Below are positions 7,006 to 31,814 of a stretch of DNA of 64,000 nt, piece by piece. The DNA is taken from sequence record MK524178.1. One strand, given 5' to 3'. The stretch is from Escherichia phage PHB12. The notes under the pieces are model-generated. The model made no database searches. It had not been told where the DNA came from and saw only the letters and a list, made by a program, of their open reading frames with translations. How positions within the stretch are numbered: the stretch's first letter is position 1; every line of letters starts with the position of its first letter. The translations under genes were made by a program, and so were the position numbers.

Positions 7006-7014
7006 AATTTTCTC

Positions 7015-11140: not shown

Positions 11141-11315
11141 TATAATTTCCTCGATGGTTCACCCATATAAAGTTTTACAATACGTTCGCCTTCATCTTCG
11201 ACGAGCTTCTCTTCATGTTTCTGGAGTTCTTTGACCATTTTCTCTTCAAAAACATCTAACCAATCTTCTGGTCCGACTCCATCATTCCAGCTTTTAAACC
11301 ATTTTACTATTCTGT

Positions 11316-11516: not shown

Positions 11517-11529
11517 ACCTTCGCCTGGA

Positions 11530-11759: not shown

Positions 11760-11823
11760 TGTTCTCCTCTTGAGTAAGTAAGAATATCTTAACACAGTTT
11801 TTAGTGGTTGTAAACTGTAGAAA

Positions 11824-12142: not shown

Positions 12143-12664
12143 TCAGTAACCATTATCCTGGCGTTCAAAGTTGTGTTGGTTTTTCAAGTAGTAAAGTTTA
12201 AAGATTTCTTCAGCGGAAAGACCCAGACCTTGGAACATATTCAGAACGAAATGCAGAATATCAATCATCTCGAATTTAATTTCAAGCTGGTCTTCAGGAG
12301 ACAGTTCATCGATACGACGATTTCGATATTCAGCATGTTGAGCTTTCCAAGGCTTCCATACAGAGCTAGCGGCTTTTTCACCATTGCTCATACCACCAAG
12401 TGAAGTCAGCAGTTCACGGAATTCATCATCAATATAATCTTTTTGATTACGCAGCCAATCAACAACATCGCCAGCAGTGGCCAATTCATCAGGATGTTTG
12501 TTATGTTCAGGCTTGTCATTTGCCAGACGAACCTGTAAAGATTTCTGCATATCAAGCATTACCTGCAGAGGGTCTTTATCTTCGTGAATCAGAGCATTAA
12601 AATAAGCTTCTTCTGCTTTATCAACACCAGAAATAAGTTGTGAACATTCGTTAAAGTGTGCCAT
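12143..12664 (-). CDS. 56: dCTP pyrophosphatase (MazG-like)
   Basis: MAHFNEC...DPLQVMLDMQ...LEIKFE..IDILHFVLNMF...FKLYYLKN..NF.RQDNGY matches T4 gp56. Confidence 0.85.
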   Translation of the reverse strand: MAHFNECSQLISGVDKAEEAYFNALIHEDKDPLQVMLDMQKSLQVRLANDKPEHNKHPDELATAGDVVDWLRNQKDYIDDEFRELLTSLGGMSNGEKAASSVWKPWKAQHAEYRNRRIDELSPEDQLEIKFEMIDILHFVLNMFQGLGLSAEEIFKLYYLKNQHNFERQDNGY

Positions 12665-16983: not shown

Positions 16984-17012
16984 ATAATAACACAACTACT
17001 GGAGAAGTAAAC
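16984..17012 (-). promoter_or_regulatory. early promoter (GTTTAC / TATTAT) nested in 12-bp inverted repeat
   Basis: Arms ctccagtagttg (16964-16975) and caactactggag (16993-17004); downstream arm contains the RBS. Confidence 0.55.
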
Positions 17013-17387
17013 TTAAAAATGTAATTTAGATATATCTGCGTTGATTTCGTTTTGGTTTGCGTCATATGCAATTAAACGAACCGCTTTAGATGGGTCATTC
17101 AATGCATAGAAATGATGGAACATTGCTCGAACGATATCACCATTTACGAGTTTTACCTGGATAGGAGAACCTTTTTCGAGTTGGAAATGTTCATAAGCTT
17201 TGATGGTTCGCAGATAATCAAGTTTTTGATTTCCGGCTCCAACAATTTGTACGATACGTTTGCCCATGTTTTCCATACGAGATACAATAGTTTTAGGAGC
17301 AAGAATAACATAGGTTGCCAGCGGAGAATCTACTTCAACAGTTGTGTTTTCGGTGATTGCAGTAAAAATTGCTTGAGACATATTCAT
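17013..17387 (-). CDS. hypothetical protein
   Basis: 124-aa ORF with promoter at about 17417-17446. Confidence 0.45.
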   Translation of the reverse strand: MNMSQAIFTAITENTTVEVDSPLATYVILAPKTIVSRMENMGKRIVQIVGAGNQKLDYLRTIKAYEHFQLEKGSPIQVKLVNGDIVRAMFHHFYALNDPSKAVRLIAYDANQNEINADISKLHF

Positions 17388-17416
17388 AGTGTTTTCCTCT
17401 TGGTTGGTGTAAGTAC

Positions 17417-17446
17417 ATCATATCATGCCTAGAGGAAGATGTAAAC
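17417..17446 (-). promoter_or_regulatory. early promoter-like (GTTTAC / TATGAT)
   Basis: gGTTTACatcttcctctaggcatgaTATGAT upstream of 17013..17387. Confidence 0.45.
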
Positions 17447-17452
17447 CCCGAA

Positions 17453-17475
17453 AGGAGACCGAAGTCTCCTTTTTA
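17453..17475. terminator. hairpin after gene 41 (orientation ambiguous)
   Basis: AGGAGAC-cgaa-GTCTCCT followed by TTTTT on plus; on minus followed by UUUCGGGG. Confidence 0.4.
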
Positions 17476-18918
17476 TTAAAATTTTAACTCATTGGCTAAG
17501 CTATCTAGGTCAGCACGTGTTGTTTTGGCTTTACCTACGCGTTCCGTACGATTCACCTCTGCCTGACGCATCTGAGCACCTGCGTTTTCATTTACTGTGT
17601 TAGGTGTGTTCATGCCTTCTTGCTCAATCTCAATCCATTTCTGGTTGCCTTTACGTACACCCATCAGGAATTTATTCCACTTATTCTTATCACCATATCG
17701 TGATTTGATTTGTTTGATAAGTTGTTGTTCAGCTTGTGCAAGTTCTTCGGTTTCAATTACGGCCAACATGAAATCTGCCGTTGCTGGTAAACCTGCTGAT
17801 TCTGCAATATCGCGCATGTTCATATCCGAAGCATCCCATGCTGCACGTCCTACTTGAGCTGCAGTCCATAGAACTGTTTCAGATTCTACTGCTAATGCAC
17901 GAAGTTCTTCTGCGATAGCTTTAACTAATGTGTAGCTATTTTCAGTGTAAACTCTGATACGACAAGACCCACAAATACCTAAGTAATCAACCATGATTAC
18001 AGATGGCACAAAGTTCTTCTTAAGTTTTAACTCATTAAGCAATGCACGGAATGTATTAGCATTAGCTCCGCCAGTAGGATACTGTTTAACTACTAAACGT
18101 CCTAATGTGGATTTTGAACGCCATTTTTCCATCTTGGCTTTATATTCAGCATAAGATACGTTACCATCATCAATATCATCAAGTGATACGTCAAGCATGT
18201 TTGCATCTATACGCTTAGCGCAAACTTCTTCAGCCATTTCCATGGAAATATAAAGAACATTATGACCTGTTTGAAGATAATCTGCAGCAAGTGAACAAAG
18301 GCCTAAAGATTTACCAACGTTAACACCGGCCATTAAAACATTCAGTGTACCGGTTTCAGCACCACCTTTAGTGATTTTATTCAGAATGTTTAATTTGAAC
18401 GGGACCTTACGTGCTTTGTTCAGATAAGAAAGCCAGCGTGCTTCATAGTCTTCCATCCAGTCATGCCCAACATAACTATCAAACGAAATTGAAAGTGCTT
18501 GACGCATAATATCAGGAATAGCTCCTACGTCAGGCATTTTCTTGTTACGTTGTTCTGGAGGTAGTTCAGCATTAGATTGAATCTCAATGATTTTAGATGT
18601 AGCATTATACATCGCTTTTTGCTGGACATATTTCTCAGTTTCTTTAACCAACCATTCGTGGTCTTCAGGAGTATCAGCCAATTTTTCAATTAGGTCTGAA
18701 GTTCCTTTATATTCGGCTTCAGTTAAAGAACTGTTATCTAAAGCCACCTTTAACGCATTGATAGATGGCATTGCATTATATTCGTTAACGTGGCTCTTTA
18801 TAATTTTAAAGACGTTTTTTGCCGGTCCACGCTCAAAATACTCAGAATCCATATAAGGCCAGACCTTAGAAAAATAAGCCTGGTCATATACTAGATGAGA
18901 CAAAATAATTTCTACCAC
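17476..18918 (-). CDS. 41: replicative DNA helicase (DnaB-like)
   Basis: 480 aa; Walker A GVNVGKS and RecA-like core; T4 gp41-like. Confidence 0.9.
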   Translation of the reverse strand: MVEIILSHLVYDQAYFSKVWPYMDSEYFERGPAKNVFKIIKSHVNEYNAMPSINALKVALDNSSLTEAEYKGTSDLIEKLADTPEDHEWLVKETEKYVQQKAMYNATSKIIEIQSNAELPPEQRNKKMPDVGAIPDIMRQALSISFDSYVGHDWMEDYEARWLSYLNKARKVPFKLNILNKITKGGAETGTLNVLMAGVNVGKSLGLCSLAADYLQTGHNVLYISMEMAEEVCAKRIDANMLDVSLDDIDDGNVSYAEYKAKMEKWRSKSTLGRLVVKQYPTGGANANTFRALLNELKLKKNFVPSVIMVDYLGICGSCRIRVYTENSYTLVKAIAEELRALAVESETVLWTAAQVGRAAWDASDMNMRDIAESAGLPATADFMLAVIETEELAQAEQQLIKQIKSRYGDKNKWNKFLMGVRKGNQKWIEIEQEGMNTPNTVNENAGAQMRQAEVNRTERVGKAKTTRADLDSLANELKF

Positions 18919-18927
18919 GATAACTCC

Positions 18928-19269
18928 TTAAAAGAATTTAAATTTTTTCTTGGTCCGTTCATTAAAAGCTTGTTGTACTTGCATTGTAACACATTTTTCA
19001 ACATGTGGTGCAAGTTCTGCTTTTCTGTCCTGGTCAAGAACTGCAAAGTCCATTACGATTTTACCATCAACCCAGTCTAGTTTTGTAATATAGACTATAT
19101 GATGAGAACCATCTTCAAGTGTAATCAGAATCTCTTGAATGACATTTTCCATTGCTGAACGGATAATTTTAAGAGATTCATTAAACACTCGTTCTTTGCG
19201 AATGTCTTCCCCTTCCGAAGAAGGGGATTCATCAACGATTTCTAGATTTAAATCATCGAGATTATTCAT
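18928..19269 (-). CDS. hypothetical protein at gene 40 position
   Basis: Between 41 and uvsX as T4 gene 40; start moved to MNNLDDL. Confidence 0.4.
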   Translation of the reverse strand: MNNLDDLNLEIVDESPSSEGEDIRKERVFNESLKIIRSAMENVIQEILITLEDGSHHIVYITKLDWVDGKIVMDFAVLDQDRKAELAPHVEKCVTMQVQQAFNERTKKKFKFF

Positions 19270-20434
19270 CGAAATCTTCCATTTCGTCAAGGTCGTTTTC
19301 TATATCTGCTGCAGACGGAGCATCAGAAGTTTTAACTGGAACTTTAGTTGTTGCTTTGCAATTAATAAGGTCGTTAACAGCGTCATCAACTTCTTTAATA
19401 GAAGAGATAGCACCTAGTTTATATTTAGTTTCAATTGCATCTCGGAAAGGTTTGTGTTTAAACAAAGGTCCCCAGAATTCTACACAATCAGTAGCTTTAG
19501 CACGCCATGATTTCTCTTCACGAATCATTTCGCCTGTTTCTTCGTCAAGGAATTCTCGAGCATACCACCCGGCTTTAGGCTTAACTACAAAACCAATTTC
19601 AGTTGCCATTTCTAACAAGCCACTGAATGGGTCAATACCACCATCAAAATTAACCGTGATCGGGAAAGTAGATTTTTCTTTAACGGTTCGAGATTTTTCT
19701 GCTTTCAACGTGAAGTCATAACCGGTCAATTCTGTGCCTTCTTTAACCTGACGTTTAGAGATAAAGAATACAGTGTTAGCAGAGTAAAGAATACCTGTAC
19801 CACCACCCATAATCTCTTTAGGATATAGACCGCCGATTTCCATTGCTGTATGGTTGATTGCAACACATGGAATATCTTTAATAGTCAGATAAGGAGTCAC
19901 AATGCGGAACAGAGATTTAAGTGCCTTAGCACGAGACATATCACCTACGACTTTCTCGTTCAATGCATCTTCGGTTTCTTTCTTAGATGCAGTATTACCA
20001 ATCGAGTCAATAAAGATAATAACTTTATCACCACGTTCAATCGCGTCAAGCTGATTAGTCATATCAACTTTAAGTTGTTCGACAGATTGAATCGGAGTAT
20101 GAACTACACGGTCTAAATCAACACCCATTGAACGAAAATAAGATTCTGAAGCACCAAATTCTGAATCATAGAACAAACAAATTGCATCTTTATATTTCTT
20201 CATATATGCTGCAACCATGGTCAGTCCAAACAACGTTTTAAAGTGTTTAGAAGGAGCAGCAAAAATAGTTAAGCCTGATTGCAACCCAGCATTCAGTGCA
20301 CCACCTAATGCAATATTCAACATCGGAATACGAGTAGGGACTTCATCGCGATTATTAAACAACTTAGACTTAGTCAAGTCTGCAGTCATTTTAGAAGTAG
20401 AAGCTTTAATCAGACGAGATTTTAAATCAGACAT
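19262..20434 (-). CDS. uvsX: UvsX recombinase (RecA/Rad51 family)
   Basis: 390 aa; MSDLKSRLIKASTSK... N-terminus and RecA core match T4 UvsX. Confidence 0.9.
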   Translation of the reverse strand: MSDLKSRLIKASTSKMTADLTKSKLFNNRDEVPTRIPMLNIALGGALNAGLQSGLTIFAAPSKHFKTLFGLTMVAAYMKKYKDAICLFYDSEFGASESYFRSMGVDLDRVVHTPIQSVEQLKVDMTNQLDAIERGDKVIIFIDSIGNTASKKETEDALNEKVVGDMSRAKALKSLFRIVTPYLTIKDIPCVAINHTAMEIGGLYPKEIMGGGTGILYSANTVFFISKRQVKEGTELTGYDFTLKAEKSRTVKEKSTFPITVNFDGGIDPFSGLLEMATEIGFVVKPKAGWYAREFLDEETGEMIREEKSWRAKATDCVEFWGPLFKHKPFRDAIETKYKLGAISSIKEVDDAVNDLINCKATTKVPVKTSDAPSAADIENDLDEMEDFDE

Positions 20435-20533
20435 TGTATTTTTCCATAGGCATCATTATATTTTACTCATGTTTAAAAGATAAGACGATTATATACTAAG
20501 GGTTATACAGCATTTAAAACTTTAAACAGGCTC

Positions 20534-21082
20534 TTAACGAGCCCATTTGATAATTTCTGTAATCAAATTATTACGTTCGCTTGCATTAAATCCTATAACT
20601 TTGTTAGCACCATCATGATTAAGTAATTGATACGTTTGGATTTTGTTATGAATTGCAAACTCTTCAAAATATGAAATGACTGTATTAAAACCAAATGAAG
20701 ACAAAGTAATAAGGTCGTCTTCAAAACTTTCAGTCATTTCGTTACGTGTTAAAATAATTGTGAACACATCATGGTTTTGGCAAAGACGAACATAATCCTG
20801 TTCATAAACGTCAAGAACCGAGTCCACATCTTGTCGAATACGTCCATAAACCCAGTTACTAATATATCCACGGTCTAACAGATAAATCTTAGTAGGGTCT
20901 AAATAATTCAACATCGTTTCGAAACAGCCAACTTCATTTCGAGACTTAACATCGAAACGTCCATCAACTGTTCGTTTAGGGAAATCAATCTTTACATATC
21001 TTTCACTAATTTCCATTATGTCATTAATGAAAGTTGTTTTACCAGCATTATCCGGGCCATCTACTAAAATAATTTTAGCCAT
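20534..21082 (-). CDS. P-loop kinase-like protein (nucleoside/nucleotide or sugar kinase fold)
   Basis: 182 aa; Walker A GPDNAGKTT at residues 9-17; DRGY lid-like motif; not a T4 gene at this position. Confidence 0.5.
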   Translation of the reverse strand: MAKIILVDGPDNAGKTTFINDIMEISERYVKIDFPKRTVDGRFDVKSRNEVGCFETMLNYLDPTKIYLLDRGYISNWVYGRIRQDVDSVLDVYEQDYVRLCQNHDVFTIILTRNEMTESFEDDLITLSSFGFNTVISYFEEFAIHNKIQTYQLLNHDGANKVIGFNASERNNLITEIIKWAR

Positions 21083-21083
21083 T

Positions 21084-21983
21084 TTATTCCTCGATTATGA
21101 CATCTTCGTATTTAGGTATATTATACGGTGAAGAAATTAAAGCATTAAAGTAGATGAACTCACCAAGACCTGGATGGAATACTTCTTCAGGATTTTCGAA
21201 ATATTGAATCTTCGGCCGTCCTTTAAGAATTTGATAGTACTCAGTTTTAGTTGGTTTAAAAATTCGAATCAGTGCTTCTTCAGGATACTTATTTCTGTCG
21301 AAGCTATTATTTGGATCGGTTATATAAAGCGGTTGACCTAATTGAATTGCACATTCAACCACTTGTTCAAAACGATAACACGGGTCACTAATTCGAAATG
21401 GATGAAAAATACCATCTAGATGAATAGGAGCCAAATCACCTACAAGACGCTGCATGATGGAAGGACGTATAACTTTCTGCGTTACGATAATCTTATTACC
21501 ATCTGCACCTGCGTTAACCAGCACTTCTTTTTGACGTTCATTCAACACAGTAGTTTGAAGTGAACGATTAACAGACAACATGTCGGTTTTTAAGAATTCG
21601 TCAATATAAAAACGTGGTTTATTAGAGTCTGCAGTAATATTGAAATTGAATTCTACGTCAAAAGTGCCGTCATATCCAGTGATATCTGTGATTAGAAAAT
21701 CACAATCATAATAATCAATTAATGAATCAACCACAAATTCATTTTCAGACCAGAAATATTTACGAGTGTTATATGCGTTATCTTTATACCATAATGGAAC
21801 AAACTTAAATTCTGGGAAAAGACGTTCACATTCTTTAATATCAGATGCATTACGTGGATATGTAATTACATCACCCGGATTAGCACGGTGCAAATGAAGT
21901 TGGAAGTTGCCATCCTTAAGGATAGCATACTGTCCAGTTTCATAAGACCGCATACTCAAGATAGGTACGCGGAAAATAGCCAT
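21084..21983 (-). CDS. hypothetical protein at the beta-glucosyltransferase position
   Basis: 299 aa; no resemblance by eye to T4 Bgt; tightly packed between P-loop gene and gene 42 homologue. Confidence 0.5.
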   Translation of the reverse strand: MAIFRVPILSMRSYETGQYAILKDGNFQLHLHRANPGDVITYPRNASDIKECERLFPEFKFVPLWYKDNAYNTRKYFWSENEFVVDSLIDYYDCDFLITDITGYDGTFDVEFNFNITADSNKPRFYIDEFLKTDMLSVNRSLQTTVLNERQKEVLVNAGADGNKIIVTQKVIRPSIMQRLVGDLAPIHLDGIFHPFRISDPCYRFEQVVECAIQLGQPLYITDPNNSFDRNKYPEEALIRIFKPTKTEYYQILKGRPKIQYFENPEEVFHPGLGEFIYFNALISSPYNIPKYEDVIIEE

Positions 21984-22699
21984 TAGTCAAGGAATCCTTT
22001 AACATAATCAAAATCACGTTCAAACACATGGGCACTTACCATGGTATGAGTATAATCACCAACTTCTACACCACATTCGTTAGCGATATAATGAAGTAAT
22101 TTTCCTTGGAGATAAAAATCCAACTGCATAACAACAGCACAGTTCTGAGAACGCATATGACAGTGGGTATAAAGCTTACCATCACGAATATAATAAGTCA
22201 CTGAGTCAGTACATGGATATTCAAGTGTTTCATCCGAATCAAGCAAAGCCTGATCTGAACTTTCAAGAATTTGAAACACAACTCTTCGTGAATTAGGTTT
22301 CTCTTTAAGTTCTTTTAGAAGAGTTGGTAACTGGGCCGCAATGCGAGGACCATAGAAAGTGTTGAAGTTCGCAGGCAAAGCATCTGATTTTGGTTTAGAA
22401 ATAAATTTAGCGACGTTAGGATATGCCTTAAATGCTTCTTCTGCATCAGTACCACCAGAAATCATAAATTTCCAGAAATCTTCAGCATATTCATAAGAGA
22501 TGCGATTAATACGTGGGTCGGTCATTTTGAATGATGAAGGGGTATCAACAACTACTGTCATAGACCCAATTTCATTACAACGTCCAATACGAGAGTCAGT
22601 AACGAACTGTGGATTTTCTAAAATTTCACGATTGACAGCTTTAAATGCGGATTGAAAATCTGCGGCTTTAATATATTTCATTGTGTTATGTTTTCCCAT
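21983..22699 (-). CDS. 42: thymidylate-synthase-fold pyrimidine C5 hydroxymethylase (gene 42-like, divergent)
   Basis: 238 aa; catalytic-Cys block YPCTDSVTYYIRDGK...HMRSQN parallels T4 gp42 FMCTNTVQYLIRD...NMRSND. Confidence 0.6.
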   Translation of the reverse strand: MGKHNTMKYIKAADFQSAFKAVNREILENPQFVTDSRIGRCNEIGSMTVVVDTPSSFKMTDPRINRISYEYAEDFWKFMISGGTDAEEAFKAYPNVAKFISKPKSDALPANFNTFYGPRIAAQLPTLLKELKEKPNSRRVVFQILESSDQALLDSDETLEYPCTDSVTYYIRDGKLYTHCHMRSQNCAVVMQLDFYLQGKLLHYIANECGVEVGDYTHTMVSAHVFERDFDYVKGFLD

Positions 22700-22978
22700 G
22701 TTTACCTCAATACAGTTATTATATACTCAATTCATAAAAGCTTATTTGAATTTCTTAGCGATGTTGATATAACGTAAAGCTTCAGCATCGATACTTCCAA
22801 GAACACTATGAAGAAATGCATCAGCGTAGTATTCTAGTTGAACAGGTTTCTTTAATCACTTTAGCCGCTTTAGTTTCAAACAGGCCCATAAGGGCCTTTT
22901 TAAGAATTTGTTCGTTGCTGTTAATTTTCATAGTCAAAATCTCTTCATTAAGTTGGTGGTTAAAAGTTTTTCTAGAAA

Positions 22979-24139
22979 TCATTCCGGGTACCTCAAAGCG
23001 TCATCAGAGTTAGTTATATCAATAATAGATATAGAGTTTTCTGCTAACCCATTTTTAGATAACTGACGTTTATAATATCTTTCACAATATGTACACGTCG
23101 TCCCGCAGATTTCATTAGCACAATCGAAATCTGGATGTCTGAACCACCTTTTTTCTAAAAAGCCATCTAACAAAGAGGTTTCAATATTTACTGTATGTGA
23201 AAACTCGGTTTCGTTTTCAAGAGTGAAAATAGTCTCTAAAGGCTTCCACAATTCCAACAAATTACCTTCAAATTTTTCAGAAGCATAAGCTTCAAGAACT
23301 TTCAAAATGTAGTCTGTGCTACCTGTACGTCCTGAAACTTTGAATTGAGTGATACCAATATCATTATAAAGTTTCAAATCTTGAGGACGAACAAAACGAG
23401 TTCTCAACCAGTTAAATGGGTCTGTATCACGAGCTTTAATACAGTGTTGCATTGGATATCCATTTAAGGATTTGGCATCATCTACTGTAACGTCGGTGCT
23501 ATGGAAAATATAGCAAGAGTCACGATAGCTACAATGTGTTGTATACCCTTTACCAGCATTAGAACAGAACTCATTTACAAGAACTTCAAATATTATATTG
23601 TTCTTATTACAAAACTCTGCTGCGCGTTTCAGGAAAGAAACTGAACGGTTCTTATGAATTCCACAGCAGACCTTTTTGATATTATATTGGTCATGCAAAT
23701 ATTTGATTTGAGTTACAGCATCAACATGTAGAATTGTTGAAACTTCAATCTCAATGTCTTTATTGACTTCACGAACAATTTCCATAACAACAGGGTTAGC
23801 GATAGTAATACGCCATACGCCTATTGACCAAAGATACTGAACATAATCCTGAATAGCTTTCTTCTTCCACTCAACTAGTTCTCTTTTTGAACCAGGATTT
23901 ATCGTGTTGAGTGTATAGTTAAAGCAAATACCTAATTCGTTACAACGTTTAACATAATCTTCTAACATCTTTTTGTCAACGTCAGGAAGCCTAAAATCAG
24001 GTCTGGCTGCTACAAAAGCCATTTCTCTTGTAGAGCCGTATACTTCGTTTATCAAGCTATTAGGATAAGTTTTATTGAGCTCTACGATTTTATCAAGAAG
24101 AGCTAAATCAAAATTCGTTCCGATTTTAAAGGTATTCAT
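22979..24139 (-). CDS. cysteine-cluster enzyme-like protein, unknown function
   Basis: 386 aa, 14 Cys including C-terminal CANEICGTTCTYC (C-x3-C-x3-C-x2-C); possible Fe-S or Zn site. Confidence 0.5.
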   Translation of the reverse strand: MNTFKIGTNFDLALLDKIVELNKTYPNSLINEVYGSTREMAFVAARPDFRLPDVDKKMLEDYVKRCNELGICFNYTLNTINPGSKRELVEWKKKAIQDYVQYLWSIGVWRITIANPVVMEIVREVNKDIEIEVSTILHVDAVTQIKYLHDQYNIKKVCCGIHKNRSVSFLKRAAEFCNKNNIIFEVLVNEFCSNAGKGYTTHCSYRDSCYIFHSTDVTVDDAKSLNGYPMQHCIKARDTDPFNWLRTRFVRPQDLKLYNDIGITQFKVSGRTGSTDYILKVLEAYASEKFEGNLLELWKPLETIFTLENETEFSHTVNIETSLLDGFLEKRWFRHPDFDCANEICGTTCTYCERYYKRQLSKNGLAENSISIIDITNSDDALRYPE

Positions 24140-24193
24140 TTTTGCATCTCGCGTTAATTGTTGCGATGGTTTTTGCAGGTCTTACTTAAATTA

Positions 24194-24595
24194 TTATAGA
24201 TTCGGTTTATATGATTTAAATGTTTCGAATTCGCCTTTATTCATAAGAGCTTTGAATTCGTCAGGACGCATAGCTTTGTCGTCGATAATCCAATCATATA
24301 CTGGTTTATGTGTTAGCAAATTATGGTACTTCAATCCAATGTTTGCCAAGTTCTGAATCAGACTTGGGAGAATGTCAATTGCTATACGACCAGGACCGAC
24401 TGACTTCATACCGCGAGCAGTGTAAAGAGTTATTGTATGCCCTGCATCATACAGGGCATTAATGGCAGACACCATTTCGACGTCTGGTTTGAAGTTCACG
24501 TAATCACGATTGTTATTCCACTCTGTTATACAATCATCGACATCAAAACAAAGATTAAGCATGTTTTCTACACGGTGCATTAGATTCGTTCCCAT
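24194..24595 (-). CDS. HAD-superfamily phosphatase-like protein
   Basis: 133 aa; motif I FDVDDCIT and motif II TLYTARG. Confidence 0.5.
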   Translation of the reverse strand: MGTNLMHRVENMLNLCFDVDDCITEWNNNRDYVNFKPDVEMVSAINALYDAGHTITLYTARGMKSVGPGRIAIDILPSLIQNLANIGLKYHNLLTHKPVYDWIIDDKAMRPDEFKALMNKGEFETFKSYKPNL

Positions 24596-26265
24596 TGATG
24601 AGTGATATCGCCACCGATTGGACGATAGGAAACACCAGTTTCTTTATCAGTTAGTACCCATTTACCAGGATTTTTTGTAATCAGAGTAGCCGTTACAGGT
24701 TCTGCTACGTCATAACTAATAGAGCCGTCTTGAAGTACACGGCCCATGTTACGTAATTGCTTAGTCAGAAGTTCCATACCTTTATAATATGCGGCTACCG
24801 CTTTAAGTGGATTATTCTTGAAATAACCACCTAATGCAATCCAGATAATTGCTACAGCCAAATGATGATATTCATTAAACGAACTCATCTTTCCATATTT
24901 GTAAACTAATGGATTGATGTTAATAGTCACATTACAAGTTGTTTCATCAATAGTAAACTGTCCCCAGGTCGGATTAGCGTTGAATTCATCATAACCTGAA
25001 ACAGCATAAAGCACTTTAGCTTCATCGTACAATTTTGGCCCATAAATCTTGGTTTCGCCAAAATATCCACGAGGGTCGATAAACTTAACTTCGCCGTTAT
25101 CAGTAATCATAGTATTACTGAAGTTCGGGTCACCATGAATAACAGAGTACTGTCCCTGAGAACGATTATGATAACGAATAAGGTGTTCTAAAGCTTGTTT
25201 CAGCATTGGCTTCAGACGTCCAATCTTAGTGTAGTTCACATGTGTGATTTTACCAAATGAATCAATCAATGGTTGAATGCTTTCACAACGATCAATAACT
25301 TTCGTATAGAATTCTTTAGTGAAATCACGACGAACAGTTTCAGGACTTACAAAATAAGTGTCTGTGCTGAATTTCAGTGCATCTAAAATTGCATCAACAA
25401 TTTGTGGACGAGCAAGACTCGATTTGGATTTAATATATTCAAATGCCGGCTTACCTTTAATGCGTTCCATTTCAAAGTTATTTTCATTAACAGAAACTAA
25501 CTGAGGAACTGAATCTGATTTCACTTTAAGATACCATGAAATCTCATCTTTCTGAAGAGCTCGGCCCTGTTCGGTTAATGCGAATTTAGTTACAGTTTCT
25601 TCACCAATTTCAACTGCATTAAAACTACGATTAAGTTCACGAACTTCATGAGCTTTTTCAAGTTTAGGCATATCACCTAAATCAATTAGATTCATAAGCT
25701 CTGATTTATTGAATGCGCTGCCGTAAAGGAATTCTACGAAATCACGTCCTTTGCAGTATTCATGAATTTCCTCATCAGTAGAACCCATATAGAATTCCCA
25801 GTCTTTGAACTGATAAATTCCTACAACATTACCACCTGTTGAACCTACGTTAGTGATATTTTCACCGTCGAAATTATATCGACATTCGTCACCCTTAACA
25901 TAGATTGCGTTAACATTCCAAGACCATGAGCCAAAATCAGGAATAATATCACACCAGTTAACAATTACATTATGGCCGTCTAAATCTTTGTGTAATTTAG
26001 CAAGAGCATAAGCAGAACCATACGCTTCATCAACTGTACGAATAGTCACATTGAACCCTTCTTGCTCACAATAAGCTCGAACAGTTTCAGCAAATTTTGA
26101 ATGAACTACTACAATAATTTCATCTGCGCCAAGGTCAGAATAAATTGTATACAAATTGCTCAGAATAGTGTCTTGTTTATAGTTAACAAGCACCTTAGGA
26201 ATATGATGCGTTATTGGATACAAACGAGTTGCCAGTCCAGCACCAAGAATAACAGCTTTTTTCAT
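24580..26265 (-). CDS. bifunctional sugar-1-phosphate nucleotidyltransferase / APH-like sugar kinase
   Basis: 561 aa; N-terminal ILGAGLATRL (NTP-transferase G-x-G-x-R) and C-terminal HGDPNFSNTM...IDPRG (kinase catalytic/DFG-like). Confidence 0.65.
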   Translation of the reverse strand: MKKAVILGAGLATRLYPITHHIPKVLVNYKQDTILSNLYTIYSDLGADEIIVVVHSKFAETVRAYCEQEGFNVTIRTVDEAYGSAYALAKLHKDLDGHNVIVNWCDIIPDFGSWSWNVNAIYVKGDECRYNFDGENITNVGSTGGNVVGIYQFKDWEFYMGSTDEEIHEYCKGRDFVEFLYGSAFNKSELMNLIDLGDMPKLEKAHEVRELNRSFNAVEIGEETVTKFALTEQGRALQKDEISWYLKVKSDSVPQLVSVNENNFEMERIKGKPAFEYIKSKSSLARPQIVDAILDALKFSTDTYFVSPETVRRDFTKEFYTKVIDRCESIQPLIDSFGKITHVNYTKIGRLKPMLKQALEHLIRYHNRSQGQYSVIHGDPNFSNTMITDNGEVKFIDPRGYFGETKIYGPKLYDEAKVLYAVSGYDEFNANPTWGQFTIDETTCNVTININPLVYKYGKMSSFNEYHHLAVAIIWIALGGYFKNNPLKAVAAYYKGMELLTKQLRNMGRVLQDGSISYDVAEPVTATLITKNPGKWVLTDKETGVSYRPIGGDITHQWERI

Positions 26266-26306
26266 GTTGTGGTCCTCATTGGTAAGTAGGAGTATTGTAC
26301 ACTATT

Positions 26307-26450
26307 CTAGTTAAAGCATTCATACTTTGCTTGTAGTCCAATCATAATCCATCCGATTATAAGAGTCGGAATCATTACTGGAGCCGTTAAGCTCCAGTAG
26401 ATAGTCATGACAAGCATCAATAGTAAAAGTCCTATTGTTATTGCTTTCAT
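26307..26450 (-). CDS. small hydrophobic ORF coupled to isomerase gene
   Basis: 47 aa MKAITIGLLLLMLVMTIYW...; ATG overlaps stop of 26447..27082 (ATGA). Confidence 0.3.
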   Translation of the reverse strand: MKAITIGLLLLMLVMTIYWSLTAPVMIPTLIIGWIMIGLQAKYECFN

Positions 26451-27082
26451 TGTTCGCCTCGTAACATGGCACCTAGTGCACCGCCAGGGTGGAACTTAAG
26501 GAAGTCATTAGAGGTAAATCCACGTTCAGACGAAAGGTTGATAGCAAACGTATCGATAAGCGCTAACAACAATGTAGTGGACATGGTCGGAGCCAGAGAA
26601 TTCTCATCGACCTCTACTGCGATGCCTGTACAGAACGTATAATCAAAAAGAGCTTCGTATTCTTGTGGAATGTCTGGGTTACAATGCAACAGAATCTGTT
26701 TGACGTTCGGACGAATCATTTTAAGATGCTTAGCCACGCCTATCATTTCTTCAGTTTTACCGGAACGACTAATATGAATCAACACATCATTAGGCGCAAT
26801 GAATCCTGCATCACCGTGAGAATAATGCCCAGTGTTCAAGTACATACTCGGGATACCGAGTGAAGCAAATGTCTCAGAAGCTTTAGTTGCAATATTAGCA
26901 TTCTTACCAACACCTGTAATAATTACTCGGCTTTCATAATTACTAAGTCCAGGGCGTCGAAGAGTTTCTAGAATAGCATTATAACGAGCAGGGTTTTGAC
27001 TAATTACTTTGGCCATAGCGGCCAAAGAAGAAGCTTGTTTTATGATTGCGTCAATAGCGATAGTAATAGGAGTAGTTTTCAT
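26447..27082 (-). CDS. SIS-domain sugar-phosphate isomerase (KdsD/GutQ/GmhA-like)
   Basis: 211 aa; VIITGVGKNANIATKASETFASLGIPS and SRSGKTEE resemble SIS phosphosugar-binding motifs. Confidence 0.65.
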   Translation of the reverse strand: MKTTPITIAIDAIIKQASSLAAMAKVISQNPARYNAILETLRRPGLSNYESRVIITGVGKNANIATKASETFASLGIPSMYLNTGHYSHGDAGFIAPNDVLIHISRSGKTEEMIGVAKHLKMIRPNVKQILLHCNPDIPQEYEALFDYTFCTGIAVEVDENSLAPTMSTTLLLALIDTFAINLSSERGFTSNDFLKFHPGGALGAMLRGEQ

Positions 27083-27122
27083 ATTTCTCTCATTTAATTA
27101 GTTTGCCGTCAATGTCATTATA

Positions 27123-29834
27123 TCAAAAATCGAACATATCGAACAGAGATGCTTTCTTCTCGTAATCGAGTTTCGCTGCTGATGTGAATCCTTCAAGTGG
27201 TTTAATAAATGTCTTCTCAAGGAGAACAGTGTAGTCCATCCAATGAAGTACGTCGTCTTTAATTAAATCTGTGATTTCAGTGCCAGAAGGCCATGCGATA
27301 CATTTATCACCGAATGGGTTTCCTTCACGTAAAGGCAGAACATATACTTTTTCACCTTCTACAACTTGTGGTGCATCGATATTACCTTTGATAGCCCGGT
27401 TATACGTCAGAATTCCACGAATATGGAATGGGCATTTGGGACCAGGGAATCCACCTACGTCATATTTAGCAATGTTATTCGCAGAAGATACCGACGCGAT
27501 GCTAATATAATTCAATTGACGGAATTCTTTTTCAAACTCTTTAAAATATTCTTGTAATGATTCTTCACCTTCTTGAAGCATACGACGAATACATTCTTTA
27601 AGAGCTTTCTGTACTGCTTTAGGAGTCGAAGATTTCTGAGTCTCTAGACCCATGATTTTGAGTTTAGGCTCAGCGTAACGAGTACCTTCCATATCCCACA
27701 CGTTTAATGCATAACGTTTCTTACCAGTCCAGAATCCACCAATACCTTTAGAACCTAATGGAGGCCCAGCGATAGCTTCTCGGTCCATGAACATTAAGTG
27801 TTGTTTATTGTTCATGTATTCACACATTTCACGGAAACCTCTATCAATAGCTGGTTCCATACGTTCACGTGCAAACTTATCTAAGAAGTCTACCCAATGG
27901 TTGGTATCACGGAATTTAGATTCACCAACCTTATCGATAATTTTATCAGCAGATACGTAAATAGAGTCTGTATCACCATAAAGAACGAAAGCTTCACCTT
28001 CTGTACCACAAACTTCATTCAGATATTCATTAACTTTACGTTCAATCCACTGTAAAGCCATTTGACCAAATGTTGTGATTGCAGTAGCATTACGCAAATC
28101 ATAATAACGGAACCAAACGTTTCCAAGTGCACCATAAAGTGAGTTGATAAGCAATTTACGGTTAATTTGAGCAGTCATACCTGCAACTTCAGTACGTTGA
28201 GCTCTAAACAACATTTCATTAAGAGATTTAGCAGACAACTTTTTAATCTTTTCTTTAATCTCATCACTGAAGTCGAAACGATAATCAACATCTAATGGTT
28301 CGTCAACAGAAAGATTAGGATTATGCAATGCCTCTTTAATTATTTCACCATTACGTTGAGCTGCAAGCATGTAACCTTTATGTTCTTTACGTTGATTAAA
28401 GACCTTAGTGATTTCAGTTGGAACTACACCATCACGGTCTTTATAATACATCATGCCGTTAGGAGAGCAACTGTACACATCTGAAGGACGTTCAGCAACA
28501 GCGTTAATATAATCATGCAATGGAGCTACTTTAAACGTTCCTGCTATTGTTTCTGGGCTAATATTCACTTGGCGAATAATACTTGGATACAGAGATGTAA
28601 GGTCGAAACTCATTACATATTTGTATCGATTCGGAATAGGTTCCTTAACAAAAGCGCCGGGATAAGGTTGAACCGGGTGAGAACGACCTTGTGGAATCAC
28701 CTTGTTCTGCTCTTTAAGGCTATTAAAAATAATAGCATCCCATGTTTTAATTGGACTAAACACAGATTGAATCTGTATCTTAGCATAATAACCCATGTCC
28801 AAACTCAAGTTGATGAACTGACGCTTAGCATCAATTTGCAATACACGGTACACGTCGATAATGTTATAAGAAATATATCGTTGGTGATTGCTTTCACGAA
28901 GCTTAGAAATAGGGCCGTCATATTTCAGTTTACCAACGTTCAATTCAAATTCTGAAATGTAATCCAGAGAATATGATGGTTGATTGGTAAAAGAGAATTT
29001 TTTGTAAAGGTCAATGTAATCAAGAACAGAGATACCGAACAATGTAATGATTTCACGAGAACCATACATGTTTTCGATAACTTTAACACGAGTTTTACGA
29101 TGTGGTGATAAACGTTTCGCAGTAGATTCGCCAAAAATATTCTTGATTCGGTTATACACATACGGAATATCAAATGACTCAACGTTCCATCCAGTCAAAA
29201 TGACAGGAGTTTTCTGTTGCCAGAAGTTGAGATATTCCATCAACAATTCTTTTTCGTTATCGAACGGCATATAAATGATTTTATCGATAATTTCAGATGG
29301 AACTTCATCACCACCTTGTTCTTGAAGCTTAGCAGCGATTTCAATAGACCATTCTTCTACATTACCATATGGAGAATTCAATAGATCAAATACATAGAAC
29401 CTGTCGTCAATTGAGTCATAATGGGTGATAGCATCAATCGGATGTTTTGCTTGTGACGGCTCAGGGAACCCATCCGGAGATGTTACTTCGATGTCGAAGT
29501 TAGCCACACGAATTTTTGTATGGTCATATTTGATTTCATAGTTATAAGTGTCAGACAAATACGCCAATTTGAAATCGTCCATGCCAAGTGCTTCAAGTCC
29601 GATATCTTCCATGCGTTTAATCCATTGGGAGGCATCACGCATATTGGCGAACAACTTACGAGTACACGGCTTACCGTAGATATCGAAATATTTCGTAGCC
29701 TGACTTTCTGGGCAATGAGCAAACAGTGATGGTTTATATTCTACTTCACGAGTACGTTCACGGCCATTAGAATCGATGTAACGTTCAAAAATTGAATCAC
29801 CAATCTGTTCAACCGTTAAGTAAAATTCTTTCAT
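27123..29834 (-). CDS. 43: DNA polymerase (family B)
   Basis: 903 aa; MKEFYLTVEQIGDSIFERYIDSNGRERTREV...; exo motifs FDIE and YNIIDV, pol motifs DLTSLYPS and YGDTDS; matches RB69 gp43 from memory. Confidence 0.97.
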   Translation of the reverse strand: MKEFYLTVEQIGDSIFERYIDSNGRERTREVEYKPSLFAHCPESQATKYFDIYGKPCTRKLFANMRDASQWIKRMEDIGLEALGMDDFKLAYLSDTYNYEIKYDHTKIRVANFDIEVTSPDGFPEPSQAKHPIDAITHYDSIDDRFYVFDLLNSPYGNVEEWSIEIAAKLQEQGGDEVPSEIIDKIIYMPFDNEKELLMEYLNFWQQKTPVILTGWNVESFDIPYVYNRIKNIFGESTAKRLSPHRKTRVKVIENMYGSREIITLFGISVLDYIDLYKKFSFTNQPSYSLDYISEFELNVGKLKYDGPISKLRESNHQRYISYNIIDVYRVLQIDAKRQFINLSLDMGYYAKIQIQSVFSPIKTWDAIIFNSLKEQNKVIPQGRSHPVQPYPGAFVKEPIPNRYKYVMSFDLTSLYPSIIRQVNISPETIAGTFKVAPLHDYINAVAERPSDVYSCSPNGMMYYKDRDGVVPTEITKVFNQRKEHKGYMLAAQRNGEIIKEALHNPNLSVDEPLDVDYRFDFSDEIKEKIKKLSAKSLNEMLFRAQRTEVAGMTAQINRKLLINSLYGALGNVWFRYYDLRNATAITTFGQMALQWIERKVNEYLNEVCGTEGEAFVLYGDTDSIYVSADKIIDKVGESKFRDTNHWVDFLDKFARERMEPAIDRGFREMCEYMNNKQHLMFMDREAIAGPPLGSKGIGGFWTGKKRYALNVWDMEGTRYAEPKLKIMGLETQKSSTPKAVQKALKECIRRMLQEGEESLQEYFKEFEKEFRQLNYISIASVSSANNIAKYDVGGFPGPKCPFHIRGILTYNRAIKGNIDAPQVVEGEKVYVLPLREGNPFGDKCIAWPSGTEITDLIKDDVLHWMDYTVLLEKTFIKPLEGFTSAAKLDYEKKASLFDMFDF

Positions 29835-29846
29835 TTAATTTCCTTT

Positions 29847-29862
29847 AGACGAGTTATTGTCT
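29847..29862 (-). promoter_or_regulatory. gene 43 translational operator hairpin (autoregulation site)
   Basis: Minus strand AGAC-AAUAACUC-GUCU immediately 5' of RBS AAGGAAA and ATG; same architecture and loop core as the T4 gp43 operator. Confidence 0.6.
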
Positions 29863-29892
29863 TTTGTTTGTTGATGAACTTATTATACTCCA

Positions 29893-29912
29893 AATGGGAC
29901 CGAAGTCCCATT
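29893..29912 (-). terminator. hairpin after regA (8-bp stem, UUCG loop)
   Basis: AATGGGAC-cgaa-GTCCCATT immediately 3' of regA stop; separates regA from gene 43. Confidence 0.5.
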
Positions 29913-29915
29913 GCT

Positions 29916-30293
29916 TTAATTACCAATTGTATATTTTGCTTTCAAAGTCCAGTCATCTTTCTGTTTAAAAGAGATAACACGGAAGTTATTAGTCAGGCCA
30001 AACAGATCTTCACGAGCAGAGTCTTCAATAACAATCAATCCCCAGTCTTCAAGCAACTGAGCAATCGAATCACGTCGCTGATAGTCTTCACCATCAATAT
30101 CAACCTGACGTCCGTCCATACGCAGCATTTCTTTAAAGTGGACGATGTAATATTTACCTTGCTTTTGGAGGATATGACAAGACTGGTAAAGGACTTTATC
30201 CTTGTTATTAGCGATGCCCATACGGGTCAGAGTCTCTTTGACTTTCAGAAAATCTTCAGGGTTCTTCAATTTAATTTCAATCATTTTTACCAT
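29916..30293 (-). CDS. regA: translational repressor RegA
   Basis: 125 aa; [41 protein letters not shown]... matches T4 RegA. Confidence 0.9.
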
Positions 30294-30871
30294 TCCAATG
30301 CTAATTTTTTAAATTGTTTTTGTTCTTTCACGTTTTTGGTAACTTCTTTGAGAAATTCATCAGTGACCATGGCCTTCAGTTCTTTAAGGACTATCGGCAA
30401 CTTGTTATTTTTTTCAAGGAGCCGCTTATACTCAGTAGCATCGTTCATGTTGATTGTGTAATGTTTCATCAACAGTTTGATAACTAGTAACTCTGAAGTG
30501 TCTTCTACTAGTTTAGCCCATTTAGAGAATCGACGACCACGCGGAATTGCCGCCATCATATAGTTGAAGTGCGCTTCATCACTTAATTCAGAACCGACTA
30601 AGTTCATCATGTAAACAGCTGGCATACATTCTGGGAACTGGGATAATGAGTTCTCAACCATAAATTTTGAGTAGTCGACCTGAGCAATTGACATAGATTT
30701 CTTTTCATTAATAGCATTAATGATTTTAAAGAATTCATTCTCAGGTTTTTCTTTAAACATATCAGCACATTTTTGAATCGCATCAGTGTCATTAGACTTC
30801 CATGCAATTTGGTGCTCGTTAAGCCGGACGTCATCATCGAATAAGTTCATATTATTTCCAAGTAAGTTCAC
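30287..30871 (-). CDS. 62: clamp loader small subunit
   Basis: 194 aa; LNEHQ.AW...[20 protein letters not shown]...KEQKQ.KKLALEW matches T4 gp62. Confidence 0.85.
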
Positions 30872-31814
30872 AGGTCAGTTGAAGAAGCATATACATAACA
30901 TGTAATTCAATATTACTTGCTAATCCATGAAACTTATTGTTTTCGCCTGCAATTTCATAAAGCGAAATAATACTTTTACCAGGTGCAACTTGGTCATAAC
31001 ATTCTGAAACTAATTTATCGATGAACCATGAATAATCTGCGGCATATTTTGGAGCTAATGCACGAAGCTGTTTGATATCTTTGTTCTTCATTGCTTCAAT
31101 AACATCAGAGACTGTGCCACGGTCATTAGTTACGATAGACAAAATACCTGCATCAAGAACACCTTTAGACGAGTACTGGTCTAATTGACCAATTGTGCGA
31201 CGAAAGTCTGGGAAGTTCTTTTTAACCAGAGCTGCAACAACTTTCATATCAGCGATTTCGATATTTTCGTTCTTACAGATTTCAACCATACGATGAATCA
31301 TTTTCTTCATCATCGAGATTTTATCTTCTTCGGTTGGACGTCCGAATTCGATAACTCGACAACGACTACGTAATGGTTCAATAATTCCATCGATGTTGTT
31401 AGCAGTAATAACAATAGAGCAGTTACTAGAGAATTCTTCCATAAACGTACGAAGGTGACGTTGTGATTCGGCGAGGCCACTACGGTCAAATTCATCAATA
31501 ACAATAACTTTAGGCTTGCCTTCCATTGAGACTGAACGAGCGAATGCGGTTAACGGACCCCGCACAAAATCAATCTTACAATCAGAACCGTTGACAAACA
31601 TCATTTCGGCATTGATATCATTGCATAATGCTTTTGCCACGGTTGTTTTACCTGTACCAGGAGAAGGAGAGTGCAAAATAATATGAGGAAGTTTTCCTTT
31701 AGATACTAAAGACTTGAATGTTTCATGGTCATACGCAGGCAGAATACATTCGTCAATGGAAGAAGGACGATATTTCTGTTCTAGAATGTGTTCTTTGGAA
31801 TTGATAGTAATCAT
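30852..31814 (-). CDS. 44: clamp loader ATPase subunit
   Basis: 320 aa; Walker [15 protein letters not shown] box, SRC motif; overlaps gene 62 start as in T4. Confidence 0.9.

Follow-up and report, generated by a model that had tools for sequence, protein, structure and literature searches.

The interval between uvsX and gene 43 in Escherichia phage PHB12 (sequence record MK524178.1) holds seven minus-strand open reading frames (ORFs) at exactly positions 20534-27082 of the 64,000-nucleotide stretch that was analysed, hereafter the window. The window belongs to the genus Mosigvirus: its positions 17001-31000 align to RB69 (NC_004928) at 97.65% over 11.5 kb, and the block proteins are 97-99.7% identical to RB69 gp45, gp46 plus gp47, gp48, gp50, gp51, gp52 plus gp53, and gp55. 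Among 151 phage records with at least 80% coverage, the best 30 match the block at 97.6-98.5% identity, and because it is conserved across phage records these are real conserved genes, not chance ORFs. A preliminary description of the block, made without database searches, reported seven packed or overlapping minus-strand genes, and all are present, within its coordinates and packed as it says. It also compared the interval, correctly, with that of T4, which holds beta-gt, 42 and imm in the order uvsX-segA-beta-gt-42-imm-imm.1-43 (in RB69, imm is located elsewhere, outside the uvsX-43 interval).

Two interpretations are developed below. The block is very probably the gene cluster by which this RB69-like phage replaces cytosine in its DNA with arabinosylated 5-hydroxycytosine (5hoC), a core finding already known from publications of 2025-26 on RB69 gp45-gp55 and phage HY126. 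One product of the block, a 386-residue U32-family protein homologous to RB69 gp50, may be a prephenate-dependent, O2-independent cytosine-C5 hydroxylase acting on deoxycytidine monophosphate (dCMP) or on DNA, and so provide an anaerobic route to 5hoC; we put the probability of this reading at about 0.55.

The probable arabinosyl-5-hydroxycytosine pathway

RB69 DNA analysed by mass spectrometry (MS) and nuclear magnetic resonance (NMR) contains mono- and di-arabinosylated 5hoC, the sugar being ether-linked directly to C5 through the oxygen of 5hoC (Lee et al. NAR 2026, PMC13326640), and the gp45-gp55 region is described there as the arabinosylation cluster. Independent work on the Mosigvirus NP also finds arabinosyl-5hoC and calls the older assignment, arabinosyl-5-hydroxymethylcytosine (arabinosyl-hmC), erroneous (PMC13390438). 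From 97.7% nucleotide identity to RB69 we infer that the virion DNA of PHB12 contains arabinosyl-5hoC as well. Literature on the cluster includes Lee et al. 2026 (PMC13326640), He et al. 2026 and Mahler et al. 2025. The preliminary description had read the block as a non-glucose DNA hypermodification system, which holds, the sugar being arabinose in the work on the near-identical RB69 proteins (PMC13326640). Its pathway logic also survives. What has to be replaced is the modified base it named (hmC), the chemistry it gave the thymidylate synthase (TS)-fold protein, its order of kinase and phosphatase, and its remark that no individual gene had a biochemical assignment, outdated now that RB69 gp45-gp55 and HY126 have been published.

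The 238-residue TS-fold protein (Thymidylat_synt, PF00303, 1.9e-15) had been taken for a gene 42-type enzyme. It sits at the position of T4 gene 42 and is 25% identical to T4 gp42, and arabinosyl-hmC was the 2018 assignment for RB69 (PMC6024577); a divergent dCMP hydroxymethylase would fit both. Its identity to RB69 gp48, however, is 98.7%, and gp48 is a tested flavin- and O2-dependent dCMP 5-hydroxylase, not a hydroxymethylase: it makes 5-hydroxy-dCMP (5hodCMP) from dCMP in vivo, incorporates 18O from O2, yields 5-hydroxydeoxycytidine (5hodC) and co-purifies with flavin mononucleotide (PMC13326640). According to PMC13326640, 5hodCMP synthases are recognised by an Asn where ThyA has Asp169. 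In an ungapped alignment of the window protein (MRSQNCAVVMQLD) with T4 gp42 (MRSNDVVFGFRND), Asn stands at the Asp169 position, where T4 gp42 and ThyA have Asp, and Asp stands at the Asn177 position; the motifs LEYPC and RSQN...QLD pair without gaps with DFMC and RSND...RND of T4 gp42, and LEYPC places Glu at the Leu143 position, beside the catalytic Cys. (A MAFFT alignment with ThyA gapped the stretch around Asp169 differently from the ungapped alignment with T4 gp42.) With the T4-type Asp absent, the ether linkage found by NMR and MS in RB69 DNA and the older hmC assignment called erroneous, it is extremely improbable that the block makes arabinosyl-hmC.

In the pathway as we picture it, dCTPase would remove dCTP and so yield dCMP for the hydroxylase, and the TS-fold enzyme would hydroxylate dCMP at C5 with flavin and O2, as shown for the near-identical gp48. 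A gp1-type phage deoxynucleoside monophosphate kinase would phosphorylate the 5hodCMP and the polymerase would presumably incorporate the product, a presumption made because 5hodC appears in the plasmid DNA of expressing cells. The block also encodes a thymidylate kinase (Tmk)-like protein of 182 residues, 97.8% identical to RB69p045, matching PHROG 761 ("thymidylate kinase") at 7e-45 and with the Walker A motif GPDNAGKT in its translation. A Tmk-like kinase accompanies the TS-type hydroxylase and a glycosyltransferase in phages Maestro, VR5 and Thanatos, as it does in DLP3 and RL38J1 (PMC13326640 Table 1), and Tmk-like kinases lie near U32 genes in four uncultivated loci (L006, L012, L014, L049). 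The published description of RB69 gives no mechanism for this kinase (PMC13326640); the company it keeps suggests that it is probably a dedicated 5hodCMP kinase.

The sugar donor would come from four activities encoded in the block. According to He et al. 2026, as reported in PMC13326640, the order in HY126 is isomerase, C1-kinase acting on arabinose-5-phosphate (Ara5P), 5-phosphatase, pyrophosphorylase; in the same report the SIS protein is the Ara5P isomerase, the AfhE-type protein combines Ara5P 1-kinase and UDP-arabinofuranose (UDP-Araf) pyrophosphorylase, and the AfhF-type HAD protein is the 5-phosphatase of arabinose-1,5-bisphosphate. We infer the same route for PHB12. The 211-residue SIS protein (PF01380, 1.7e-10; KpsF/GutQ, 2.2e-32; KdsD, 1.2e-30; 99% identity to RB69p055) would convert ribulose-5-phosphate to Ara5P, whose C1 would be phosphorylated by the C-terminal kinase domain of the 561-residue protein (weak APH/fructosamine-kinase-like matches, residues 308-409). 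The 133-residue HAD protein (TIGR01689, "capsule biosynthesis phosphatase", 4.3e-13; 99.2% identity to RB69p051) would then strip the 5-phosphate from arabinose-1,5-bisphosphate, and the N-terminal nucleotidyltransferase domain of the 561-residue protein (NTP_transferase, PF00483, 8.5e-10, residues 3-99) would form UDP-Araf. The last protein is 99.5-99.7% identical to RB69p053 plus RB69p052. Profile searches thus bear out the kinase, TS, HAD, nucleotidyltransferase, APH-like and SIS folds guessed earlier. The suggested route through isomerase, phosphatase, anomeric kinase and nucleotidyltransferase to a nucleotide-pentose stands in its components, with UDP-Araf as the donor, and fails in its order of steps, the C1-kinase preceding the 5-phosphatase.

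The 299-residue protein, listed earlier as of no known function, is 97-99% identical to RB69p047 and RB69p046 joined and matches PHROG 3891 (unknown function) at 1e-154; a Pfam search gave no match, and comparison with T4 beta-glucosyltransferase gave no similarity (best BLASTP E-value 3.8). In RB69 the proposed first arabinosyltransferase is gp46:47 (GT-B fold), and the proposed second, a beta-arabinosyltransferase, is gp3 (PMC13326640). By its identity to gp46:47 the 299-residue protein is predicted to be the first DNA arabinosyltransferase (AraT1), and would attach the first arabinose to the 5-OH; the gp3 homologue at the edge of the window (tblastn with RB69p003 residues 1-336 of 366, 98.8% identity) would attach the second. 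Here one uninterrupted ORF encodes the arabinosyltransferase and another the kinase/nucleotidyltransferase, and each is divided in two in the RB69 GenBank record, at 6598-7498 and 10095-11781 of the RB69 locus L001; the intact ORFs agree with the published view that the gp46/47 and gp52/53 splits are sequencing errors. A point that weighs against this part of the reading is that the first arabinosyltransferase step lacks reconstitution in vitro (PMC13326640).

A U32-family protein as candidate second hydroxylase

The 386-residue protein matches Peptidase_U32 (PF01136) at 6.3e-11 (cut-off 22.4 bits). The preliminary description saw a cysteine-cluster protein, and it is indeed Cys-rich, with 13 Cys; the family went unrecognised. 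An AlphaFold2 model built on 56 homologues has a pLDDT of 92.6, and its best Foldseek match in the PDB is the U32 protein MK0906 (5d88, E 2.4e-7), the remainder being generic TIM barrels; a PDB sequence search, with the single protein or with the 56-sequence profile, found no meaningful match. A profile of the phage U32 family matches Escherichia coli TrhP (4e-6), RlhA (1.7e-4, Z=4) and UbiU in the expected segments, aligning RDSCYIFHS of the phage proteins to SGQCYISHA of RlhA. UbiU is also the best NCBIfam model for the window protein, weakly so (19 bits vs a cut-off of 440).

These relatives are what suggest a function. RlhA makes 5-hydroxycytidine 2501 (ho5C2501) in 23S rRNA and needs iron-sulphur (Fe-S) assembly, prephenate, E161, C169, C176 and C-terminal Cys (PMC5727448). 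TrhP makes 5-hydroxyuridine 34 (ho5U34) with prephenate and without O2, in parallel to the O2-dependent TrhO (PMC6599085), and UbiU/V hydroxylate ubiquinone precursors anaerobically with prephenate as oxygen donor (PMC10990095). U32 proteins are described as almost exclusively bacterial (PMC10990095). RB69 gp50 itself appears as a table entry, "sugar or heterocycle reductase", without discussion in the text (PMC13326640 Table 1). By analogy with RlhA, TrhP and UbiU/V, the phage protein would serve as a second hydroxylase, with an Fe-S cluster and with prephenate as the oxygen donor, and would make 5hoC in an anoxic host, where the flavin/O2 enzyme cannot work. Without O2 that enzyme would supply no 5hodCMP while dCTPase would still destroy dCTP. 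The U32 protein would thus be an anaerobic counterpart to gp48, in the relation that TrhP has to TrhO and UbiUV to UbiIHF.

Conservation of the protein is consistent with such a role. It is 99-100% conserved across the 151 Mosigvirus records and 81-89% across genera. In a set of 121 homologues reaching down to 48% identity, C158, C192, C203, C209, C233, C340, C345, C349 and C352 are invariant and C177 is kept in 98%; some 50 positions are invariant down to 48% identity, ten Cys among them. E185 aligns with the conserved Glu of the U32 motif, and at least 90% of the sequences in the alignment of 56 keep it; the invariant C192, C203, C209 and C233 fall in the segment that matches this motif. Because of this conservation and the invariant Cys, strong purifying selection would appear to act on a metal-cluster protein. 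Residues 340-352, which follow the barrel, read C-x4-C-G-x-T-C-x-Y-C without variation, and the CX3CX(aromatic)C part resembles the cluster motif of radical-SAM enzymes; this C-terminal cluster may be a second Fe-S site or a zinc site. Radical SAM/SPASM genes occur near U32 homologues in two loci (L006 and L007).

The genes that neighbour U32 in other phages bear on the question of its co-substrate. In the Enterobacter phage Entb_45, a 79-residue AroQ chorismate mutase (PF01817, 2.4e-10, 40.9 bits vs a cut-off of 27) starts 4 nucleotides before the U32 stop codon. A tblastn search recovered this chorismate mutase from 51 phage records, in every case from the position separating U32 and the TS-type gene, and the hosts belong to at least 12 genera: Klebsiella, Serratia, Yersinia, Enterobacter, Edwardsiella, Erwinia, Pectobacterium, Escherichia, Shewanella, Providencia, Morganella and Kosakonia. 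Rearrangement of the cluster in Shewanella phage Thanatos-1 has left U32 and chorismate mutase adjoining and overlapping. (The publication on Thanatos passes over both of these genes, and a phage transposon-sequencing (Tn-seq) preprint offers no data on the genes of the cluster.) In two uncultivated viral contigs (L014, L033), a 3-deoxy-D-arabino-heptulosonate 7-phosphate (DAHP) synthase directly follows U32, and in four more (L044, L045, L047, L048) the nearest identified gene, just upstream of U32, is a fused DAHP synthase-chorismate mutase (PF00793, 2.5e-36, plus PF01817, 7.9e-18). These DAHP_synth_1 neighbours could conceivably have been 3-deoxy-D-manno-octulosonate 8-phosphate (KDO-8-P) synthases, which use Ara5P. 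That alternative was rejected: in L014 and L033 DAHP synthase models score 2.6e-70 and 2.2e-65 vs about 1e-17 for KDO-8-P synthase models (2.6e-70 vs 2.9e-17 in the clearest case), and 4 of the 6 neighbours bear the fused chorismate mutase domain. Three independent gene architectures would thus appear to tie the phage U32 subfamily to the synthesis of prephenate, and in these other genera the fused or adjacent chorismate mutase would provide it.

The window differs at this point. Its slot ORF has, relative to RB69p049 (79 residues), one extra A in an A-run near position 22850, which leaves 53 residues; in phages F2 and ST0 the slot ORF has only 47-49. Neither the 53-residue product nor RB69p049 has a Pfam or NCBIfam match, and BLASTP finds no similarity to the Entb_45 chorismate mutase. 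We considered whether the slot ORF might be a diverged chorismate mutase, which is unsupported; it belongs to PHROG 8601 vs 10027 for the chorismate mutases. Since other genera have a genuine chorismate mutase at this place, the slot gene in Mosigviruses looks to be decaying or replaced. In PHB12, with this ORF frameshifted, PheA and TyrA of the E. coli host would provide the prephenate.

The distribution of U32 is informative beyond cultivated phages. A scan of IMG/VR with the U32 alignment yielded 44 loci. All 16 T4-like loci examined have U32 embedded in the DNA-modification operon together with the TS-type hydroxylase, and 13 of the 16 have chorismate mutase. The non-T4-like loci, about 27 including those from an exact-protein look-up, were covered for at most 10 kb to either side of U32. 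No TS of the 5hodCMP-synthase type was found in these flanks; the sole TS (in L035) keeps the canonical ThyA residues. In 18 of the roughly 27, the gene directly upstream of U32 encodes a protein of about 330 residues (X334) that is homologous to the 299-residue arabinosyltransferase (hhalign probability 99.9%, E 1.9e-32), and 10 of these 18 also have homologues of the SIS and kinase/nucleotidyltransferase proteins. In two loci a TAGT-type DNA glycosyltransferase overlaps the U32 stop, accompanied by dUTPase and UDP-galactopyranose mutase, and in two others (L006 and L012) a dCMP deaminase abuts U32 with no sugar genes in the flanks examined. The DNA glycosyltransferase homologues near U32 would therefore need a hydroxylated base, and U32 is the sole candidate hydroxylase seen nearby. 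It would appear from these neighbourhoods that U32 and the TS-type hydroxylase behave as alternatives. The wider statement, that enteric T4-like phages have two interchangeable 5hoC routes and that U32 is the sole route in many uncultivated phages, seems to us slightly better than an even bet.

Two further arrangements deserve description in their own right. L015 (5777-14179) and L041 (7575-16284) carry Gly_transf_sug, an AraT1-like glycosyltransferase, U32, a TAGT-type glycosyltransferase, dUTPase, a second TAGT-like gene and UDP-galactopyranose mutase; this order suggests galactofuranosyl-type decoration of a U32-made hydroxy-pyrimidine. They resemble Rhizobium phage RL38J1, but without a TS-type hydroxylase in the flanks examined. 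L007 (7135-17428), an ENA metagenome contig that is apparently bacterial, has two U32 paralogues in one cluster with a 5'(3')-deoxyribonucleotidase, a PnuC-type transporter, a deoxynucleoside kinase, an AlaX-like gene, a radical SAM/SPASM gene, a 29-residue ORF and a nucleoside deoxyribosyltransferase. Judged by its gene content, this cluster looks like a nucleoside-modifying or salvage module.

Among sequenced phages, the TS-type hydroxylase occurs in 373 records, including 57 from Acinetobacter and 20 from Rhizobium phages, and U32 in 221, all at least 80% identical, with named hosts in Enterobacterales plus Shewanella; no Acinetobacter or Rhizobium host is found among the 221. Nothing separates the HAD gene from the TS-type gene in Acinetobacter phage Maestro. 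Acinetobacter and Rhizobium are obligate aerobes, and the hosts of U32-bearing phages are facultative anaerobes. NrdD (PF13597, 8e-172), the anaerobic ribonucleotide reductase, is also encoded in the window, together with NrdG, its radical-SAM activase, and the phage is therefore equipped to replicate without O2.

Several observations weigh against a hydroxylase role for U32. The label that PMC13326640 gives the U32 protein is that of a reductase of sugars or heterocycles. The similarity to RlhA, TrhP and UbiU is remote, being visible by profile methods alone (pairwise BLASTP against RlhA and UbiU is insignificant), and the correspondence of the Fe-S cysteines is ambiguous, since two alignments pair C209 with different RlhA cysteines. 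The slot that holds chorismate mutase elsewhere holds an unrelated, variable small ORF in the window and in other Mosigviruses. Among E. coli phages, the Dhakaviruses have the TS-type hydroxylase but no U32, which must therefore be dispensable for some enteric phages. The pattern of aerobic and anaerobic hosts rests on few independent lineages, and in the uncultivated genomes a TS-type hydroxylase could lie elsewhere, because up to 10 kb per side was examined.

Other functions for U32 have to be set against the same evidence. It might act on the sugar side, as a reductase, an epimerase or in some other step to UDP-arabinose, as the table entry for RB69 gp50 implies and as a BASEL-collection record (H37) annotates ("putative enzyme involved in UDP-arabinose biosynthesis"); its gene is placed between that of the HAD phosphatase and those that modify the base, and in 10 uncultivated loci it follows the SIS and kinase/nucleotidyltransferase homologues. 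Yet the published route from ribulose-5-phosphate to UDP-Araf is complete without it (PMC13326640), Acinetobacter phages and Dhakaviruses have the kinase/nucleotidyltransferase, phosphatase and transferase genes and no U32, and Maestro DNA is reported to be arabinosylated although Maestro lacks U32 (PMC13326640). The two loci with U32 beside dCMP deaminase show no sugar genes in the examined flanks, it is not obvious what the linked chorismate mutase and DAHP synthase would contribute to activating a pentose, and every functionally characterised U32 member is linked to prephenate-dependent hydroxylation. A sugar-side function is on these grounds unlikely.

U32 and chorismate mutase might instead hydroxylate RNA (ho5U34 in tRNA or ho5C in rRNA) and so tune translation in infected cells, their place in the cluster being due to chance. 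T4-like phages encode their own tRNAs. The only characterised U32 hydroxylases of pyrimidine C5 act on RNA (PMC5727448, PMC6599085). The chance location is hard to reconcile with 16 of 16 T4-like loci having U32 inside the DNA-modification operon, with all 221 matches being Straboviridae homologues at least 80% identical while T4-like phages without the cluster, such as T4, go unmatched, or with unrelated contigs in which U32 overlaps or abuts an arabinosyltransferase homologue, a TAGT-type glycosyltransferase, dCMP deaminase and dUTPase; the additional C-terminal domains that TrhP and RlhA have are also missing from the phage protein. We regard an RNA substrate as quite unlikely. That U32 is a true peptidase, or an inactive passenger with no part in DNA modification, is suggested by the family name "peptidase U32" and by records that annotate "peptidase", and is very unlikely given the conservation described above, with its ten invariant Cys among about 50 invariant positions, and a prephenate-pathway linkage that suits a hydroxylase, not a protease. 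Prephenate-dependent hydroxylation of cytosine at C5 remains the reading we prefer.

Layout of the block and neighbouring features

Coordinates of the block genes, their flanks and related genes elsewhere in the window are collected in Table 1. The block is closely packed, with a 1-nucleotide gap (21082/21084), a 1-nucleotide overlap at 21983 and a 16-nucleotide overlap at 24580-24595 that shrinks to 1 nucleotide with the start annotated in RB69; two larger gaps, of 279 and 181 nucleotides, each contain one small ORF. The GC content of the block (0.33-0.41) is the same as that of its flanks. Because base composition matches the flanks, the block is an "island" by gene content alone. A scan of it for generic sigma-70 promoters and for terminators found no excess over shuffled sequence (25 vs 27 expected; 5 vs 3.9) and, being at chance level, therefore gives no operon evidence.

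Table 1. Positions in the window of the block genes, flanking genes and further genes related to the pathway
Feature	Position	Strand	Assignment and remarks
RB69 gp3 homologue	2-1009	(-)	predicted second DNA arabinosyltransferase; C-terminus lost at window edge
dCTPase	12146-12664	(-)	gp56 homologue; 97.1% identity to RB69p028 over all 173 residues
uvsX	19262-20434		flanking gene
182-residue ORF	20534-21082	(-)	thymidylate-kinase-like P-loop nucleotide kinase; RB69 gp45 homologue
299-residue ORF	21084-21983	(-)	predicted DNA arabinosyltransferase 1; RB69 gp46:47 family
238-residue ORF	21983-22699	(-)	predicted 5-hydroxy-dCMP synthase, thymidylate-synthase fold; RB69 gp48 homologue
53-residue ORF	22821-22982	(-)	slot ORF, shortened; overlaps U32 gene by 4 nucleotides
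386-residue ORF	22979-24139	(-)	U32-family Fe-S-type protein; RB69 gp50 homologue
133-residue ORF	24194-24595	(-)	predicted HAD-type sugar phosphatase; RB69 gp51 / HY126 AfhF homologue
561-residue ORF	24580-26265	(-)	putative Ara5P 1-kinase + UDP-arabinofuranose pyrophosphorylase; RB69 gp52:53 / HY126 AfhE type
47-residue ORF	26307-26450	(-)	hydrophobic; 4-nucleotide overlap with isomerase gene
211-residue ORF	26447-27082	(-)	predicted D-arabinose-5-phosphate isomerase, SIS domain; RB69 gp55 homologue
gene 43	27123-29834		flanking gene
NrdD (605 residues) + NrdG (156 residues)	41275-43559	(-)	beside endonuclease VII

Two small features within the block were also noted. At 22718-22743 on the minus strand, AAGCTTTTA is followed after 11 nucleotides by TATAAT, 18 nucleotides upstream of the start codon of the hydroxylase gene, an arrangement that resembles a T4 middle promoter (MotA box plus -10 element). 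The 47-residue ORF that overlaps the isomerase gene encodes a very hydrophobic product (MKAITIGLLLLMLVMTIYWSLTAPVMIPTLIIGWIMIGLQAKYECFN) and may specify a small membrane protein; phages F2 and ST0 annotate a 47-residue ORF at the same place.

Comparison with known modification and hydroxylation systems

For annotation, the outcome is a correction from hmC to 5hoC and a function for each gene, the block itself being already published. The wider interest lies with U32. The sole demonstrated source of 5hoC needs O2, yet gut bacteria are the hosts of these phages, which bring along an anaerobic ribonucleotide reductase. An oxygen-independent branch to 5hoC is apparently unreported: the literature searched holds no link between phage U32 proteins and DNA hydroxylation, though He et al. 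2026 and Mahler et al. 2025 lay outside that search. If the proposal is true, the phage protein would be the first U32 hydroxylase to act on DNA precursors and the first viral one, and the chemistry of U32 enzymes would reach beyond RNA and quinones to DNA. The presence of chorismate mutase and DAHP synthase genes in phages would then also be explained, the shikimate pathway being boosted to feed DNA modification, and U32 would become a marker for 5hoC-type modifications in uncultivated phages that lack the TS-type enzyme. Such a route would be relevant to phage therapy and to the evasion of restriction and CRISPR under gut conditions.

The closest known system is that of RB69 gp45-gp55 and the Afh genes of HY126, which has the same genes in the same order with the same uvsX and gene 43 flanks (97-99.7% protein identity to RB69); in RB69 the second arabinosyltransferase and dCTPase are at the same relative places as in the window. 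RB69 differs in that two genes are split in its GenBank record and in that its slot ORF, frameshifted in the window, has 79 residues. The glycosyl-5hoC systems of Rhizobium phage RL38J1 and of the Acinetobacter phages DLP3 and Maestro likewise cluster a TS-type 5hodCMP synthase, a Tmk-like kinase and glycosyltransferases, but lack U32 and chorismate mutase, and differ from the window in their sugars and in the number of transferases.

The T4 glucosyl-hmC system (gene 42, alpha- and beta-glucosyltransferases, gp56 and gp1) occupies the same genomic slot and follows the same logic: dCMP is modified by an enzyme of the TS fold, dCTP is cleared by dCTPase, and the hydroxyl so created receives a sugar from a glycosyltransferase. 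The chemistry differs, T4 using folate-dependent hydroxymethylation and the window type hydroxylation with flavin and O2, and so does the sugar supply, which is host UDP-glucose in T4 and, in the window, arabinofuranose from four phage-encoded activities. T4 beta-gt is unrelated in sequence to the 299-residue transferase, and the uvsX-43 interval of T4 contains no U32.

For the proposed pairing of gp48-type and U32 enzymes, the precedents in which O2- and prephenate-dependent hydroxylation are paired are TrhO/TrhP (PMC6599085) and UbiIHF/UbiUV (PMC10990095), where an O2-type hydroxylase (TrhO, or UbiI, UbiH and UbiF) and a U32 Fe-S protein (TrhP, or UbiU-V) serve one product, as the window pair is proposed to do. 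RlhA and TrhP, moreover, target pyrimidine C5, the position proposed for the phage enzyme. The window U32 would differ from RlhA, TrhP and UbiU-V in being virus-encoded and in acting on a DNA precursor or DNA, not on RNA or a quinone, and the phage U32 subfamily is remote from them and compact (about 360-390 residues), with a C-terminal CX4CX3CX2C cluster of its own.

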